NCBI GenBank assembly: GCA_036846145.1
Contig: DAIUCM010000002.1
Coordinates: 15,345 to 79,344, forward strand
Origin: Bacteroidota bacterium
Lineage (GTDB): Bacteria > Bacteroidota > Bacteroidia > CAILMK01
Length of the DNA stretch: 64,000 nt
Reading direction: 5' to 3'
A model generated the notes under the pieces. The model saw nothing but the letters and a program-made list of their open reading frames with translations, was not told the origin of the DNA and did no database searches. Positions 22,290 through 53,161 of this stretch are shown in pieces; position 1 is the stretch's first letter, and the number at the start of each line of letters is the position of its first letter. Made by a program: the position numbers and the translations under genes.

Positions 22290-22508
22290 GTAGAAACGAC
22301 GATTTATCGCGTCTCATTCTTGAGATGAAGCTGAGACGCGATAAATCGGCGTCTCTACAACACCAGAATGCCATTTACATATATACTTTGTCCAAAAAAT
22401 ACTTTCATAATTGAATCACGAAACCAGTGAAATCAAATTAATCATTATTAATCAGCGGTCTGACATGAAAACCGCGACGAAGCATTCGTAATTCGTAATT
22501 CGTAATTG
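22290..22508. mobile_element. degenerate MITE-like family-2 copy (27-bp hairpin GTAGAAACGACGATTTATCGCGTCTCA / TGAGACGCGATAAATCGGCGTCTCTAC; right end CCGCGACGAAGCATTCGTAATTCGTAATTCGTAATTG)
   Basis: Near-perfect 27-bp inverted repeat at 22290-22358; right-end block is reverse complement of the AATTACGAATGCATCGTCGCGG block at 8914; internal palindromic-motif half-site 22379-22406. Confidence 0.45.
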
Positions 22509-25342: not shown

Positions 25343-25530
25343 GCTGTTAATTATTCTTTATACTGAAGCATTTTTAGCCGTCTGCATATATGGATGCGCC
25401 GGAAAATGCTTCGTGATTTATTATTCTAAATATTCCCCTTCCAGGTAAAAATTATGGTTAACAAAAGGGTTTTTCAAAGGTATAAAAAATAGTTTCTATT
25501 CTTAGAGCATTGCCTTAAGCTGTAAAAGTC

Positions 25531-28025: not shown

Positions 28026-28042
28026 TAAGGAATTAACAATTA

Positions 28043-28193
28043 CGAATTACGAATACATTAACGCGATGTAAAGACGACATGCCTGGCGTCTCGTTGCCGC
28101 GAAGATGTGAATTTCTATATATCAATTTACTAAAAAATGCTCTGAGCAAAATTTTCAATGTCGCGGATGAGACGCCAGGCATGTCGTCTCTAC
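28043..28193. mobile_element. MITE-like family-2 element, copy 1 (25-bp TIRs GTAAAGACGACATGCCTGGCGTCTC / GAGACGCCAGGCATGTCGTCTCTAC)
   Basis: Perfect 24/25 terminal inverted repeats at 28068-28092 and 28169-28193 enclosing ~75 bp that carries a palindromic-motif half-site (ctatatat..aaaaaatgctct); preceded by AATTACGAATTACGAATA block. Confidence 0.7.
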
Positions 28194-35250: not shown

Positions 35251-36714
35251 TCAAATACGCAATCCCACCAGCACTTTTTCAATCTTACTTTTAATTTCTG
35301 CGGAAGAACAGGTGTAATTATTCACGATCAGCGCAAAGGCATATTTTTTATCGGCAGATGTATAGCCGGCATAACTTCTTACCCTGTCCATGTGGCCGCT
35401 TTTGGCGCGTAATTTTCCCGAAATGGCAGTTCCATCGCCCATGTTACGCATAGCGCCGCTTTCTCCCGCAACCGGCAAAGAATTATAAAAACTGCTGAAA
35501 TAAGTTTCTTTCTTTACAGATGCCAGCACAGCAGTTAATTGATTGGCCGTTATGGCGTTGTAATGCGATAATCCACTGCCGTCATTCATAAAAAAACCTT
35601 TCGCATCTACACCTTTACTTTTCCAGAATTGCGTAATGGCTTTTGCACCCGCTTCGGTAGAACCTTCGTTAAAAACCTTGTAGCCGCATTCTTTCAATAA
35701 ATGTTCCGCGTACAGGTTGATGCTTTTAAGGTTTGTATGATAGACAATGTCCTTTAGCGGCGGCGAAACTGTTGTATGCAGCGCAGGGAATTCCGGCTTA
35801 AACGGGCTGTTATTACCTTGATTAAGCTGGAAACCACGGTTTTTAAGTTCGTTTATTAAGCTTTCCACGCAAAAAGCAACAGGATTTGGCATAGCGCCTT
35901 TGACCTTAAAGCCTTTGCTGCCGGCCGGGATTGTGCCGCGAATAACAAAATTAGGATTGTTCGGAGCGCCAAAAATATAAGCGTTATCTCCGGAATTTGC
36001 CGGCCCTGCCTTCAGCTCGCTTATCAGTGTAAATTGCGGCAGTTTCGGGTTGATGTCAACAATTTCCACTTCGCTGCCGACTGTTGCCGGTGCATTTAAT
36101 GTAACCACATACGTATTTTCATTGATGGTTAAAGCACTGGCGCCCGAACCATAATAATTACCGATATCGTTCCAGGCCCAATTGGCGGGTTGCATGGCAT
36201 TTTCGTAGCGGTTGGTAATAGCCGAAATACTGCCAATTTTTTTCTGCGGAAATTTCTGGGTAATGGCATCGGCCCAGGATTTTACCAGCGCATCCGAACC
36301 CGACGAGCCTTTTACCCTGTCTGAACCCAAAGTCGGGTCGCCTCCGCCAATGATGAAAATATTGTTGCTAACAGAATCGTAAACGAGTTGCGTTTTAAAA
36401 GTATAATCTTCGCCCAAAATACCCAAAGCGGCTGCAGTAGTTACAATTTTTAAGCTGGAAGCCGGAATAATCGACTGGTTAGCGTTGTGCTCAAAAATAG
36501 CTTTTCCGGTTTCTGTATCTACCAAAGCAAAACCCACAGAAGCGTGCGCAAGTGCCGGATCGTTTATGAAGGTTTTGAATATTTGCCTGAATTTTTCTAG
36601 TTTATCAGAATCTGCAGGTGGAGAAATGGACGAGAAACCAATAAAGCAAAAGAGCAAAATCAGGCTAAACAAAGCATTTTTTCGGGTTCGTATATATGGA
36701 GAAGTTTGATCCAA
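35251..36714 (-). CDS. dacB: D-alanyl-D-alanine carboxypeptidase/endopeptidase (PBP4 family)
   Basis: 487 aa; signal peptide; SxxK active site in IIPASSLKIVTTAAALGIL; PBP4 fold length; annotated first 14 codons overlap a palindromic-motif instance. Confidence 0.8.
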   Translation of the reverse strand: MDQTSPYIRTRKNALFSLILLFCFIGFSSISPPADSDKLEKFRQIFKTFINDPALAHASVGFALVDTETGKAIFEHNANQSIIPASSLKIVTTAAALGILGEDYTFKTQLVYDSVSNNIFIIGGGDPTLGSDRVKGSSGSDALVKSWADAITQKFPQKKIGSISAITNRYENAMQPANWAWNDIGNYYGSGASALTINENTYVVTLNAPATVGSEVEIVDINPKLPQFTLISELKAGPANSGDNAYIFGAPNNPNFVIRGTIPAGSKGFKVKGAMPNPVAFCVESLINELKNRGFQLNQGNNSPFKPEFPALHTTVSPPLKDIVYHTNLKSINLYAEHLLKECGYKVFNEGSTEAGAKAITQFWKSKGVDAKGFFMNDGSGLSHYNAITANQLTAVLASVKKETYFSSFYNSLPVAGESGAMRNMGDGTAISGKLRAKSGHMDRVRSYAGYTSADKKYAFALIVNNYTCSSAEIKSKIEKVLVGLRI

Positions 36715-36760
36715 TTAAAAATTAAGAATTAAAAATTAAAAATGCCGTGATATGTTTTGT

Positions 36761-46859: not shown

Positions 46860-47068
46860 GCGAATAAATCGTTACTATTTTCTACAAAGAAGAATGCTTT
46901 ATTTTTAACTAACTGAAGCATTTTTAGCCATACATATATATGGTACACCTGTAAAAATGATTCATCATACAGCAAATGTATTAACGATTTCTTAACACAC
47001 GCTTAACATTTGGCCAATTTTGCGTGCGGAACTTTGCAGAGAATTAATAATTTTATAAAACCTGCTTA

Positions 47069-48307
47069 ATGCGTTTCCTTCAAAAGTTTATACAGCACAC
47101 TCTGTTATTCATCTGCATTACTTTCAGCACGAATGTTTTTTCACAAACCGACAGCATAAAAAAGCCTTCCGTTGCCGAACAGCCAGCCAGGGAAAAAGCC
47201 TGGTACGAAAAAATAGCTTTGCGTGGCTATACACAAATACGCTATAACAGGCTGCTGGAAACGAACCCGGATCTTAAATGCGACCAGTGCGATAAATCAT
47301 GGGGAGCAAATGGTGGTATTTTTATTCGCCGCGCCAGGCTTGTGCTTAGTGGCGATGTGCATCCGCAGGTTTATATTTATATTCAGCCCGATTTAGCTTC
47401 TGCACCTTCCAGCAACTCATTGCATTTTGCGCAGCTGCGCGATGCTTATTTCGACCTTAGTTTCGATAAAAGCAAAGAATACCGTTTGCGTGTAGGCCAA
47501 AGCAAAATACCTTATGGTTTTGAGAATTTACAATCGAGCCAGAACCGTTTAGCGCTGGACAGGAACGATGCATTGAACAGCGCTGTTGCCAATGAACGCG
47601 ATATGGGCGCTTTTTTCTACTGGGCGCCAAAACACATCCGCGAAAGATTTTCAAGCCTTATAAAATCCGGATTGAAAGGCTCGGGAGATTATGGTGTTTT
47701 TGCTTTTGGCGCTTATAACGGGCAAACTGCCAATAAGCCGGACCTTAACAATTCACTGCATTACGTAGCAAGAGTTTCCTATCCTTTCCAGTTTAAAAAT
47801 GGCCAGATCATCGAACCGGGCATACAGGCTTACACAGGTAAATTTGTTGTTGCTACAGACCAGATCACAAAAGGCGTAACTTTAAATAACACGGAAGTTT
47901 TAGATGAGCGCGCCGCAGCAAGCTTTGTAGTTTACCCACAGCCATTTGGTTTCCAGGCAGAATATAATATCGGCACCGGCCCGGAGTTCAATCCGCAGAC
48001 CAATACAATAGATTCCAGGAAACTGGAAGGCGGCTATGCCATGATAAATTACAAGCTGAATATTGGAAAACAGCTTTTGTATCCATTCATCAGAACCCAA
48101 TATTACAGCGGCGGAAAAAAGCACGAAACCGATGCCCGTAAATACCGCGTTCGCGAGCACGAATTTGGCATAGAATGGCAGCCTTACAACAACTTCGAGC
48201 TTGTAGCTATGTACACCATTTCGGATAGAACCTTTGAAGATTTCAAGCTGCCAAGCAACGCACAAAGCGGTAATTTATTAAGGCTGCAGCTACAGTTCAA
48301 TTACTAA
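47069..48307 (+). CDS. OprO/OprP-like porin-family outer-membrane protein
   Basis: 412 aa; signal peptide; IRRARLVLSGDVHPQVYIYIQPD segment typical of Porin_O_P; divergent from 45675 porin. Confidence 0.5.
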   Translation: MRFLQKFIQHTLLFICITFSTNVFSQTDSIKKPSVAEQPAREKAWYEKIALRGYTQIRYNRLLETNPDLKCDQCDKSWGANGGIFIRRARLVLSGDVHPQVYIYIQPDLASAPSSNSLHFAQLRDAYFDLSFDKSKEYRLRVGQSKIPYGFENLQSSQNRLALDRNDALNSAVANERDMGAFFYWAPKHIRERFSSLIKSGLKGSGDYGVFAFGAYNGQTANKPDLNNSLHYVARVSYPFQFKNGQIIEPGIQAYTGKFVVATDQITKGVTLNNTEVLDERAAASFVVYPQPFGFQAEYNIGTGPEFNPQTNTIDSRKLEGGYAMINYKLNIGKQLLYPFIRTQYYSGGKKHETDARKYRVREHEFGIEWQPYNNFELVAMYTISDRTFEDFKLPSNAQSGNLLRLQLQFNY

Positions 48308-48385
48308 GAATAATGAATGATTGAATGAATGTAAGAATGAAAGAATATGCCGCGATGCGAAGCAAACCGAAATTCAATTACGAAT

Positions 48386-48551
48386 CAATGTCGTTTAATT
48401 AAGGATGGAATAAATTCCATCCCTACAATATTTGATCGTCCATACTGGACTTGATTAACGCTCCGAACCAAGTTCCATGGGAACGATAAAATATTGTAGC
48501 AACGGATTTTAATCCGTTGATGGCAAGAATTTTCTTACCTAAACGACATTG
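48386..48551. repeat. structured element with nested inverted repeats (outer 12-bp IR CAATGTCGTTTA/TAAACGACATTG; inner IR CTACAATATTT/AAATATTGTAG; hairpins GGATGGAATAAATTCCATCC and CAACGGATTTTAATCCGTTG); candidate ncRNA or MITE
   Basis: Four independent stem pairs within 166 bp, flanked on both sides by direct copies of AATTACGAAT + GCCGCGATGCGAAGCAA blocks related to MITE family 2 ends. Confidence 0.5.
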
Positions 48552-49048
48552 AATTACGAATGCCGCGATGCGAAGCAACCTTACAACCTTACAACTATAA
48601 AACTTCACAACTTCATTTACATATAAACATCTCGGAAAAAATACTTTGTGCCTTTGTGCCTTCGTGGCAAAAAAACCTGAAGATGAAGCAAGCTTACAAA
48701 CTTCAGCTTGAATTGCATATAAATGAAGCCTAAAAGTGCTTTCAAAACGAATCACACAATCAGCGAAATCTTAAAAATCATCATTAATCAGCGGTTAAAA
48801 CCGCGATGCGAAGTAATTTTTCAATTTTCCAATATTACAATTTTCCAATTCATCCATATATTACCCTCAGAAAAAATGCTTCATGTTTGGAGTGTTAAAA
48901 ACACAAAGTGTTAACAATTTCTTAACATTGGAGCTTCCACAACATTGCTTTGCTGCGTAACTTTGTATTGAAATTCCATATTTGCAACAAGGCTTCAATA
49001 AAACCATAACACACTTCAAATCAACGGAATATAATTATTAAAACACGA

Positions 49049-50071
49049 ATGAAAAAAGCCATTTATTTTTTACTGGCAGCAGGAATCAGTTTAAGCGCCT
49101 GCAACAATAATAATCAAGGCGATAATGCAGGAAAGACAGAACAACAGGGAGCGATACAGATTGACGGCTCCAGCACTGTTTATCCTATTACTGAAGCAAT
49201 TGCAGAAGAATACCGTACAGAAAGTCCGGGTATAAAAATTACAGTTGGCGTTTCGGGTACAGGCGGCGGCTTTAAAAAATTCACACGCGGCGATATTGAT
49301 ATTAACGATGCTTCCCGCTCAATTTCAGCTGGTGAGCTTGAGCAGGCAACACAAAATAAAATTGATTTTATAGAATTACCCGTTGCTTATGATGGTCTCG
49401 CTATTGTGGTAAACCCTGAGAATAACTGGGCGAAAGATATTACCGTTGCCGAGCTGAAAAAGCTTTGGGAGCCGGAAGCGCAGAATAAAATAAAACGCTG
49501 GAACCAGATTCGCCCGGAATGGCCTAACGAGGAAATTCACTTGTTTGGCGCGGGAGTAGAATCAGGCACGTATGATTATTTTACAGAGGCAATTGTAGGC
49601 AAAGCGCACAGCAGCCGTGGCGATTATACTGCCAGCGAGGATGACAATGTATTGGTACAGGGAATTTCTACCGATAAAAATGCGCTTGGCTTTTTTGGTG
49701 TAGCTTATTACAACGAAAATAAGGCAAAACTGAAGCTATTACCAGTTGACGACGAGAACGATGCGAACGGAAAAGGCGCAATTTCACCAACCGATGAAAC
49801 CATACAAAACGGAACTTACCAGCCGCTGAGCCGCCCGATTTTTATTTATGTTAACGCTAAAGCCGCAGAACGGGCAGAAGTAAGCGATTTTATAAACTTT
49901 TACCTTGAAACTGTAGGCCAGATTGCAAAAGAAGTTGGTTACGTTGCCTTACCAAATGATGTTTACGAACTGGTAAAAAAACGCTTTAACAATAAGAAAA
50001 CCGGCTCTGCATTTCTAAATAAATCGCATGTAAATGTGAACCTGAAAGAAATGCTTAGCGATAGCAAGTAA
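49049..50071 (+). CDS. pstS: phosphate ABC transporter substrate-binding protein PstS
   Basis: 340 aa; lipoprotein signal (LAAGISLSAC); DGSSTVYPITEA...SGTGGGFKKF PBP motifs. Confidence 0.9.
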   Translation: MKKAIYFLLAAGISLSACNNNNQGDNAGKTEQQGAIQIDGSSTVYPITEAIAEEYRTESPGIKITVGVSGTGGGFKKFTRGDIDINDASRSISAGELEQATQNKIDFIELPVAYDGLAIVVNPENNWAKDITVAELKKLWEPEAQNKIKRWNQIRPEWPNEEIHLFGAGVESGTYDYFTEAIVGKAHSSRGDYTASEDDNVLVQGISTDKNALGFFGVAYYNENKAKLKLLPVDDENDANGKGAISPTDETIQNGTYQPLSRPIFIYVNAKAAERAEVSDFINFYLETVGQIAKEVGYVALPNDVYELVKKRFNNKKTGSAFLNKSHVNVNLKEMLSDSK

Positions 50072-51823: not shown

Positions 51824-51826
51824 TTT

Positions 51827-51867
51827 CAGTGATCAGTGATCAATTAACAGTGATCAGTGATCAATTG
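51827..51867. repeat. tandem direct repeat 2 x CAGTGATCAGTGATCAATT(A/G) in the pstA-pstB gap
   Basis: cagtgatcagtgatcaattaa-cagtgatcagtgatcaattga; related CAGTGACCAGTAATCAGTGACCAG occurs inside MITE copy 2 (36841-36866). Confidence 0.6.
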
Positions 51868-52115
51868 AATATGAACATGTATAATCTCGGTTGCCGGGAT
51901 ACTGAAAGTGCGAAACCCAAAAGCATAAAAGTTTGCATAGCGTTTTTAGAAAATAATATATAGAAGAAAAATTAAGAGTAGCCATTAATGGGCGAAAAAA
52001 ACAGCCTGGCCTAAAGGCCAGGAAATAACAAAGCATTTTTACTTGCTTCCATATATGGAAACCACGGAAAATGCTTTACTTGATAATTGATAATTGATAA
52101 TTGAACATTGGGAAA

Positions 52116-52868: not shown

Positions 52869-53161
52869 ACAATGTAATAATGAATAAATACATTAATGAT
52901 ATAATAGGAATGTGTAGATGTGGAAATATGTAAATGTGCAAATTAGCTGAACAGGACAATCGGAGCACCACTCCTTCCCTGTTCCAGGGAAAGTGCCCAA
53001 AAGGCGGAAGGGCAAATTTCATATATAATAACACTGAAAAATGCTTTCAATCAATCTTCATATTTTCACATCTGCAAATAAAAATTTATTCATTCATTCT
53101 TACATTCATTCAATCTTACATTAAAAATAAACGTAACTTAGCAAAAACGTAACAGTAACAA

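Follow-up and report, generated by a model that had tools for sequence, protein, structure and literature searches.

The hairpin-rich core of a pstS upstream spacer in an uncultured Bacteroidota bacterium as a miniature element with IS4-type ends

The spacer between a porin gene and pstS

We analysed a stretch of 64,000 nucleotides from an uncultured Bacteroidota bacterium (the whole stretch is hereafter called the window), concentrating on the 741-bp spacer at 48308-49048, which has a porin gene on one side and pstS on the other, and in particular on a multi-stem core within it. The core has the ends and flanks of a transposable element of the miniature inverted-repeat type (MITE) related to insertion sequences (IS) of the IS4 family. 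An initial annotation, made from the DNA letters alone, had described a repeat-packed spacer between a porin gene and pstS, and the gene calls at 47069-48307 and 49049-50071 bear this out. The source is a metagenome-assembled genome (MAG); an identical PstS is also found in Logan assemblies of SRR3961739, and it is most closely related to MAGs labelled 'Bacteroidia bacterium' and 'Sphingobacteriales bacterium'. The flanking genes and the parts of the element, including its terminal inverted repeats (TIRs) as well as the target-site duplication (TSD), are as follows.

47069-48307, plus strand: upstream gene, phosphate-selective porin O/P family (Porin_O_P; Pfam PF07396, E = 9e-37)
48377-48384, no strand: left TSD ATTACGAA; the same 8-mer stands at 48553-60 and fits the target logo nTnATnAn
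48385-48552, no strand: MITE of 168 bp, with ends matching the family consensus TCAATGTCGTTTAGTTAAG at 18 of 19 positions, a TSD and a family of at least 117 loci
48385-48403, plus strand: left TIR TCAATGTCGTTTAATTAAG, from inverted-repeat and family-end comparison
48534-48552, minus strand: right TIR, TCAATGTCGTTTAGGTAAG on the minus strand, from the same comparisons
48553-48560, no strand: right TSD ATTACGAA
49049-50071, plus strand: pstS, followed by pstC, pstA, pstB and phoU

The core is bounded by inverted repeats and an 8-bp duplication

The outer inverted repeat of the core (48385-48403 and 48534-48552) is perfect over 13 nt and matches at 17 of 19 positions overall. The core had initially been given as 166 bp with a 12-bp outer repeat and four stems; the stems stand, and the size is corrected to 168 bp. 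The TIRs are 19 nt long (TCAATGTCGTTTA..TAAG) and match the 21-nt end of a family found in Bacteroidota. On either side of the core, at 48376-85 and 48553-62, stands AATTACGAAT, and this direct repeat arises because an exact 8-bp TSD, ATTACGAA, abuts inverted ends that start with TCAATGTCGTTTA. The element is small and non-coding: the sole open reading frame (ORF) across it, of 110 aa on the minus strand, has no Pfam match and overlies the MITE and repeats, and its earlier dismissal as spurious is reasonable. The element is separated by 78 nt from the porin stop codon on its upstream side and by about 360 nt from the conserved Pho-box/-7-box region of pstS on its downstream side.

The upstream regions of orthologous pstS genes had been proposed as a comparison, and in the three closest relatives (L119, L122 and L124, with PstS identities of 85, 81 and 72%) the core region is absent and the pstS control block is conserved. 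These loci have no counterpart of window positions 48314-48905; an amino-acid permease gene stands there between the porin gene and pstS, accompanied by either a response regulator or a 157-aa ORF (L119 3947-5862, L122, L124). Alignment to the relatives picks up again at 48906, with 77% identity to L119. We sought remnants of the permease gene in the window and found none. Because the gene and its remnants are missing there, the spacer is a lineage-specific rearrangement scar full of duplications.

The ends belong to an IS4-type family spread over Bacteroidota

We scanned one genome per species for the end pattern TCAATGTCGTTTARKTAAGRA and obtained at least 117 loci, which, among the matches listed, are all from Bacteroidota and from several of its classes; we estimate that about two would be expected by chance. 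The taxa with the pattern are Bacteroidales, Prolixibacteraceae, Cyclobacteriaceae, Spirosomataceae, Chitinophagaceae, Flavobacterium, Aureispira and Lentimicrobiaceae. Past the 21 conserved end nucleotides the interiors differ wholly between genomes, and single MAGs repeat one interior with differing flanks (for example L002, L027, L056 and L107). Many matches are located at contig ends; 59 elements are complete, with both ends inside the fetched DNA. These range from 60 to 2281 bp, most being 120-200 bp and four about 1.4-1.5 kb. Exact 8-bp flanking duplications were found in 29 of the 59, and duplications with at most one mismatch in 40, as against a mean of 0.5 and a maximum of 4 exact duplications when the partners were permuted. 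The duplicated 8-mers form a palindromic, AT-rich logo, nTnATnAn, in which position 2 is T in 25/30 and position 7 is A in 28/30; the window TSD agrees with this logo. It is because of this target logo that the elements often lie within AT-rich tandem repeats of 7-8 nt.

Such repeats (AATCGTA, GAATCGT, ATTATGA, TTGATAA and similar) are frequent beside MITE insertions across Bacteroidota (L002-L118), and the window has them in the spacers at 22484-22507, 28030-28054, 36713-36743, 51826-51866, 52080-52110 and 53084-53122. With their repeated nTnATnAn targets, these tandem repeats look like insertion hot spots.

The larger members of the family are autonomous. The elements of about 1.48 kb (L042, L117, L063 and L110) carry an ORF of 390-414 aa that matches Pfam DDE_Tnp_1 (PF01609) and the NCBIfam model 'IS4 family transposase' (NF033592), the latter with scores of 156 and 151 bits where the cutoff is 115, which identifies the product as an IS4-family transposase. 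The ends of the window element are the same as those that bound these transposase-gene elements of 1.4-1.5 kb, and the duplication, exact over 8 bp on both sides, has the length of that of the autonomous L042 copy (TTTATGAT). Close homologues of the transposase form at least 3459 clusters, mostly on contigs of about 1.5 kb, as a multi-copy IS predicts. The sequence GTTCTTTGAAA..., conserved after the end in several loci, was considered as an rRNA leader and rejected; it lies upstream of the transposase gene and forms the left end of the IS.

Of 20 positions, 16 are the same in the ends of E. coli IS4 (TAATGCCGATCAGTTAAGGA) and in the family end, the AGTTAAGGA tail included. At the protein level, IS4/ISPa1635-family transposases on plasmids ('IS4-like element ISPa1635 family' in the Prokaryotic Genome Annotation Pipeline, PGAP) are 36-39% identical to the protein of the autonomous relatives, whereas E. 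coli InsG is just 24% identical to it. IS4 in K-12 makes a 12-bp target duplication, in contrast to the 8 bp of the window family, and the window element, unlike IS4-family insertion sequences, lacks a transposase gene altogether.

MIC231 of IS231 and the Correia elements of Neisseria belong to the bacterial MITEs and mobile insertion cassettes that descend from DDE insertion sequences. The window element resembles such elements in being short, non-coding, intergenic and AT-rich-targeting, in having the TIRs and the TSD length of a parent IS, and in its long hairpins. The BrickBuilt/MITEPgRS elements of P. gingivalis are MITEs with IS5-type ends (PMC4596501). They differ from the window family, whose ends are of the IS4 type and are kept across Bacteroidota classes, and whose interiors vary between genomes and are made of local hairpin repeats, not of IS remnants. 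The TIR sequences gave no match in literature searches.

Taken with the inverted repeats, the TSD and the absence from related loci, the family leads us to conclude that the core is very probably a non-coding, non-autonomous 168-bp derivative of an IS4-family insertion sequence widespread in Bacteroidota. A non-autonomous element had been one of two initial suggestions for the core, and the IS4-family TIRs and exact 8-bp TSD bear it out. The core had also been expected to turn out a plain MITE if it was found in many copies with TSDs, and this is essentially what was found, with the caveat that what is multi-copy across genomes is the ends and not the exact interior of the window element.

Several points weigh against this interpretation. 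There is only one copy of the element in the 64-kb window, and tblastn with the family transposase found no transposase there, so that multiple copies and an autonomous partner in this genome are hypothetical. The exact interior of the window element was not matched in any other TIR-bounded element searched. An empty-site allele is lacking because the gene arrangement in the relatives differs here. Lastly, a different enzyme could in principle mobilise the modules, tagged with GTAG, that make up the interior of the element (see below).

By analogy with what is known of the IS4 family, movement would be by cut-and-paste. A DDE transposase supplied in trans would bind the two TIRs of about 20 bp (TCAATGTCGTTTAGTTAAGGA type), excise the element and insert it at an AT-rich nTnATnAn target with staggered cuts 8 bp apart, and repair of the cuts would have yielded the flanking ATTACGAA duplication. 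The spacer in which the element landed is unique to the lineage and is built up from local duplications and short tandem repeats. Most likely it is a neutral passenger there, which at most adds a strong hairpin to a read-through transcript of the porin gene.

In an independent Logan assembly of SRR3961739, contig L154 ends at window position 48340 and L001 begins at 48567, leaving a gap of 226 bp that holds the MITE and the first copy of a 19-mer repeat described below. The breaks could reflect a repeat, a palindrome-induced drop in coverage or population heterogeneity. A simple model of alleles with and without the MITE does not fit 48340/48567, and we draw no inference from it. An empty-site allele, if present, would join ...TTCAATTACGAA directly to TGCCGCG..., minus the 168 bp.

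The interior is an inverted pair of GTAG-tagged modules

Between the TIRs, the core has the hairpins GGATGGAATAAATTCCATCC (48403-22) and CAACGGATTTTAATCCGTTG (48500-19) and an inner inverted repeat, CTACAATATTT/AAATATTGTAG, at 48423-33 / 48489-99. Its left half repeats its right half imperfectly and in inverted orientation. The interior can be described as two modules that resemble repetitive extragenic palindromic (REP) sequences.

48403-48450, minus strand: REP-like module 1, with hairpin GTCCA-GTA-TGGAC, linker GATCAAATATT, GTAG and hairpin GGATGGAA-TTTA-TTCCATCC; 29/29-nt identity to metagenome modules, and covariation
48472-48519, plus strand: REP-like module 2, with hairpin GTTCC-ATG-GGAAC, linker GATAAAATATT, GTAG and hairpin CAACGGAT-TTTA-ATCCGTTG; metagenome matches, and covariation

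There are thus four internal stems because the interior consists of two inverted copies of one two-hairpin GTAG module. The GTAG at 48496-99 is directly followed by the palindrome CAACGGAT-TTTA-ATCCGTTG, and the mirror image of this arrangement stands at 48403-26.

One of the internal hairpins is matched by 28 metagenome contigs, in which the similarity extends over only about 29 nt, the hairpin plus CTACAATAT. What recurs in these contigs is a module of about 50 nt, comprising a hairpin with a 5-bp stem, a linker GAT..ATATT, GTAG and a hairpin with an 8-bp stem and a TTTA loop, with the consensus GAGCCGTAGGCTC-GATTCATATT-GTAG-GGATGGAATTTATTCCATCC (contigs L126-L153). The modules occur singly, in inverted pairs and in tandem arrays in contigs from freshwater and peat metagenomes (for example L128 940-1100 on the minus strand, L150, L145 and L133 440-520), and both window variants (the GGATGGAA and CAACGGAT stems) are present there, often arrayed. 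Over 12 distinct copies, each of the 13 base pairs is paired throughout, and 8 of them have changed on both sides; the second hairpin had been pre-selected for pairing in this set and the first had not. IS4-type ends were never found beside modules in the 28 contigs, and the module-bearing contigs do not have a 27-nt motif that is characteristic of the window lineage. An Rfam scan of five module-rich contigs returned nothing relevant. A likeness to domain V of group II introns ('GAGCCGTA...CGGTTC' in some modules) was rejected, as the window copies lack this sequence and there is no Rfam match.

The hallmark of GTAG REPs is a GTAG tetranucleotide adjoining a short palindrome, and a survey of these sequences reports none from Bacteroidetes (PMC3733652). 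The window modules are like GTAG REPs and their doublets (REPINs, REP doublets forming hairpins) in that GTAG abuts a short-loop palindrome with a stem of 6-9 bp, that the pair is inverted with the GTAG ends facing, and that they cluster in other contigs. They differ in having an additional upstream 5-bp hairpin and a conserved linker, and in the window the module is found only inside the TIR-bounded, TSD-flanked element. The module may be an undescribed family of GTAG REPs.

These features raise the question of whether the core is itself a REPIN-like doublet, that is, inverted GTAG REP hairpins moved as single-stranded DNA by a REP-associated tyrosine transposase (RAYT, of the IS200/IS605 type), with the outer repeats being incidental. 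Two inverted modules are present, each with GTAG beside an 8-bp-stem hairpin as in GTAG REPs (PMC3733652), and the metagenome modules are arrayed without IS4-type ends. However, the unit that is bounded and target-duplicated runs from TIR to TIR, and its 8-bp TSD is exact; to our knowledge, members of the IS200/IS605 family make no target-site duplications. Moreover, no further module copies were found in the window (64 kb of this genome), the relatives or the 117 other Bacteroidota loci (879 kb in all). Nor was a RAYT gene seen, though no search aimed at one was made. We therefore regard a REPIN-like origin of the whole unit as very unlikely. The element is better described as a chimera, with IS4-type ends around an inverted pair of REP-like modules, and its interior is not a remnant of a transposase gene. 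As no other module copies were found in these sequences, the cargo may come from another genome.

MITEs of other genomes also carry hairpins as cargo. Two such cargos, CTTCGACTCCGCTCAG...CTGAGCGGAGTCGAAG and CGTCATTGCGAG...CGCAATGACG, both recur (L006, L008, L013, L025, L034, L060 and L088 for the first; L026, L039, L077, L101 and L112 for the second). Because hairpin cargos recur in many MITEs, it can be said that IS4-type ends enclose host-specific palindromic repeats time and again; in this MITE family, cargo rich in hairpins is the norm. Possibly, IS4-type MITE 'shells' ferry GTAG REP modules between lineages.

Folding of the core and its possible roles in RNA

The core had at first been thought to resemble a structured RNA, 6S-like or cis-regulatory, and folding from both strands and a covariance-model search had been proposed as checks. 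In this case the multi-way junction would be the functional unit of a structured RNA, either non-coding or cis-regulatory: a 6S-like RNA, a leader responsive to Pho, or an element of the porin 3' untranslated region. It does fold far better than shuffled sequence, with z = -9.8 and -11.9 for the two strands; the copies of the two-hairpin sub-module show compensatory changes, and there are G-U pairs on the GTAG strand. Yet the two strands fold equally strongly, as expected of a DNA palindrome, and the fold energy per nucleotide is typical of the MITE family (-0.397 for the window element, against a family median of -0.394). The limits of the core coincide exactly with the IS-type inverted repeats and the 8-bp duplication, and the region is missing from the spacer of the relatives, in which the pstS control block is conserved. 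An Rfam scan of 47800-49500 gave no relevant match at E <= 10, the best being eukaryotic snoRNA and miRNA models far under their gathering scores; in particular, no covariance model for 6S, the signal recognition particle (SRP) RNA, group II remnants or riboswitches matched. Thus, the core shares with such Rfam RNAs a multi-stem, low-energy prediction, and differs from them in matching no model, in not being conserved at the locus and in its strand symmetry. We consider an RNA function of the core highly improbable, and this explanation already largely refuted.

A narrower possibility is co-option: between the porin gene and pstS, the MITE would now serve as a terminator or insulator, in place of a hairpin-plus-U terminator of the kind present in a relative. 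In L119, the closest relative, the porin gene is followed by a canonical hairpin and T-run, whereas window 48200-49100 has no terminator-like site and the MITE is the first strong hairpin past the porin stop codon. The closing stem of the MITE, however, is not followed by a T-run, no conservation indicates selection, and pstS has a conserved candidate Pho box and -7 box of its own. Co-option therefore seems unlikely; a terminator role is a possible side effect of the MITE and not an alternative identity for it.

Complementarity between 48506-21, within the element, and 49020-35 was also seen. It is not conserved in the relatives, and we take it to be due to chance.

The pstS control region lies downstream of the repeats

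The part of the spacer that aligns with the relatives contains two candidate control elements.

48909-48930, plus strand: candidate Pho box of two TTAAC direct repeats (48911-15, 48922-26) with 11-bp phasing, at the start of the block shared with the relatives; conserved in L119, L122 and L124
48958-48965, plus strand: candidate canonical Bacteroidota -7 box TAACTTTG (TAnnTTTG) for pstS, invariant in four relatives

Four relatives share the same order, namely the 27-nt motif, about 25 nt, TTAACAATTTCTTAACA, two TTAAC 11 bp apart, about 30 nt, TAACTTTG and a leader of 70-95 nt; counterparts are found at L119 5863-5945, L122 2184-2250 and L124 5890-5950. Upstream of the porin gene, three phased TTAAC (46981-47007) are followed at the same distance by GAACTTTG (47029-36). 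By analogy with regulators of the OmpR/PhoB type, the phased TTAAC repeats are a candidate Pho box. The consensus for promoters of the primary sigma factor in Bacteroidota is -33 TTTG / -7 TAnnTTTG, with the -7 box some 19-21 nt downstream from TTTG, and on this established knowledge we read TAACTTTG at 48958-65 as a candidate canonical -7 box. Together, the two boxes likely constitute a putative Pho-regulated promoter of both pstS and the porin gene. The initial annotation had placed the pstS promoter at 48961-48987. Its second element, CATATTTG, lacks the first T and is separated from the TTTG (48962-65) by 11 nt and not 15, and the TTTG itself is the tail of the conserved -7 box TAACTTTG.

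The remainder of the spacer is made of local repeats

Outside the MITE and the control region, the spacer holds the following repeats.

48308-48346, no strand: irregular GAAT/GAATGA low-complexity block (Tandem Repeats Finder, TRF, period 4, 72% matches)
48347-48365, plus strand: 19-mer ATGCCGCGATGCGAAGCAA, copy 1, a spacer-local repeat absent from other fetched loci
48560-48578, plus strand: 19-mer ATGCCGCGATGCGAAGCAA, copy 2, at the start of a unit of about 85 nt (19-mer, 8-nt tandem repeats, 27-nt motif)
48576-48615, plus strand: 8-nt tandem repeats CAACCTTA / ACAACTTC (TRF)
48620-48646, plus strand: 27-nt motif copy CATATAAACATCTCGGAAAAAATACTT
48716-48741, plus strand: weaker copy of the 27-nt motif
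48798-48881, plus strand: diverged second unit of about 85 nt, with the 19-mer variant AAACCGCGATGCGAAGTAA, repeats of AATTTTCC and, at 48855-48881, the 27-nt motif; 71% identical over 84 nt to 48563-48646

The bulk of this sequence is thus two diverged units (48560-48646 and 48798-48881, 71% identical) plus the extra 19-mer at 48347-65. The 19-mer variant at 48798-816 matches at 16 of 19 positions, which brings the matches to 3 in all against 0.24 expected, and a search for the 19-mer (GCCGCGATGCGAAGCAA) in all fetched loci found it in the window spacer only. Composite direct copies on the two sides of the core had been proposed; the repeats are there, though not in the same order, since the GC-rich 19-mer precedes AATTACGAAT in the first copy and follows it in the second. 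The first block had been read as an 11-bp-periodic GAATGA array, whereas TRF gives a period-4 GAAT array in which GAATGA is spaced by 9 and 12. A similar GAAT block is present on the opposite strand in the pstB-phoU spacer (53087-53123, 92% match), and comparable 7-8-nt tandem arrays are found in further window spacers.

Two internal spacers of the pst operon are unusually long, pstA-pstB (51824-52100, 277 bp) and pstB-phoU (52869-53161, 293 bp), and each has a GC-rich hairpin in addition to tandem repeats and 27-nt motif copies. The length and repeats of these spacers suggest that pstB and phoU may own separate transcription signals in the window lineage.

A dispersed 27-nt motif marks the window lineage

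In the 64-kb window there are 64 copies of the bipartite 27-nt motif, CATATATA-N11-AAAAATGCTT, or about one per kb, as against about 0.35 copies in shuffled sequence. Three copies are in the pstS spacer, and what had been annotated there as a 'half-site' at 48855-83 is a complete copy (48855-48881). Its density is about 0.4-1.2 per kb in the relatives L119-L125; over 768 kb from other Bacteroidota it is 0.027 per kb. Forty copies are intergenic, two of these under the spurious ORF; among the genic copies, each of the three frames and either orientation is represented. Strong enrichment is seen in every class of spacer: 5 of 9 convergent, 7 of 9 divergent and 19 of 34 co-directional ones have the motif, and in the last class the excess of co-oriented over antisense copies is only 16:8. 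One convergent spacer with the motif is flanked by two genes with solid Pfam matches. There are also three overlapping palindromic pairs of the motif. Besides the pstS spacer, examples of motif positions in the window are 25366-25411, 46916-46962 and 52031-52076.

We considered and rejected several identities for the motif. As a sigma-54 promoter it has the wrong GG-to-GC spacing; as a canonical -7 box it has AT in place of TA and its last G is not conserved; as the start of a mini-ORF it has ATA for ATG in about a quarter of the copies; and as a peptide-coding repeat it would not be expected in all frames. The window lineage uses a canonical -7 box at pstS, which the motif does not match, and a promoter-only role is unlikely. 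A scan of viral contigs gave, among the matches listed, only single background matches; the sequence had no match in literature searches, and no tRNA genes were found in the window. Tentatively, and with considerable doubt, we suggest that the motif is a genome-wide DNA-level signal undescribed for Bacteroidota, such as an uptake-sequence-like tag or a site for a nucleoid or insulator protein. As such a signal it may be neither an ordinary promoter nor a mobile element.

Implications

With this analysis, a false candidate for a new regulatory RNA drops out, and the control elements of pstS are placed downstream of the repeats. The 27-nt motif is a by-product of the work, one with real potential. 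At the level of the family, the analysis documents a set of IS4-type insertion sequences and MITEs whose 21-nt ends are kept across Bacteroidota classes and whose interiors are replaced by hairpin repeats of the host. Such MITEs are a practical cause of assembly breaks. Given that the modules are near-identical in unrelated metagenome contigs, they also offer a possible route by which hairpin repeats pass between genomes.

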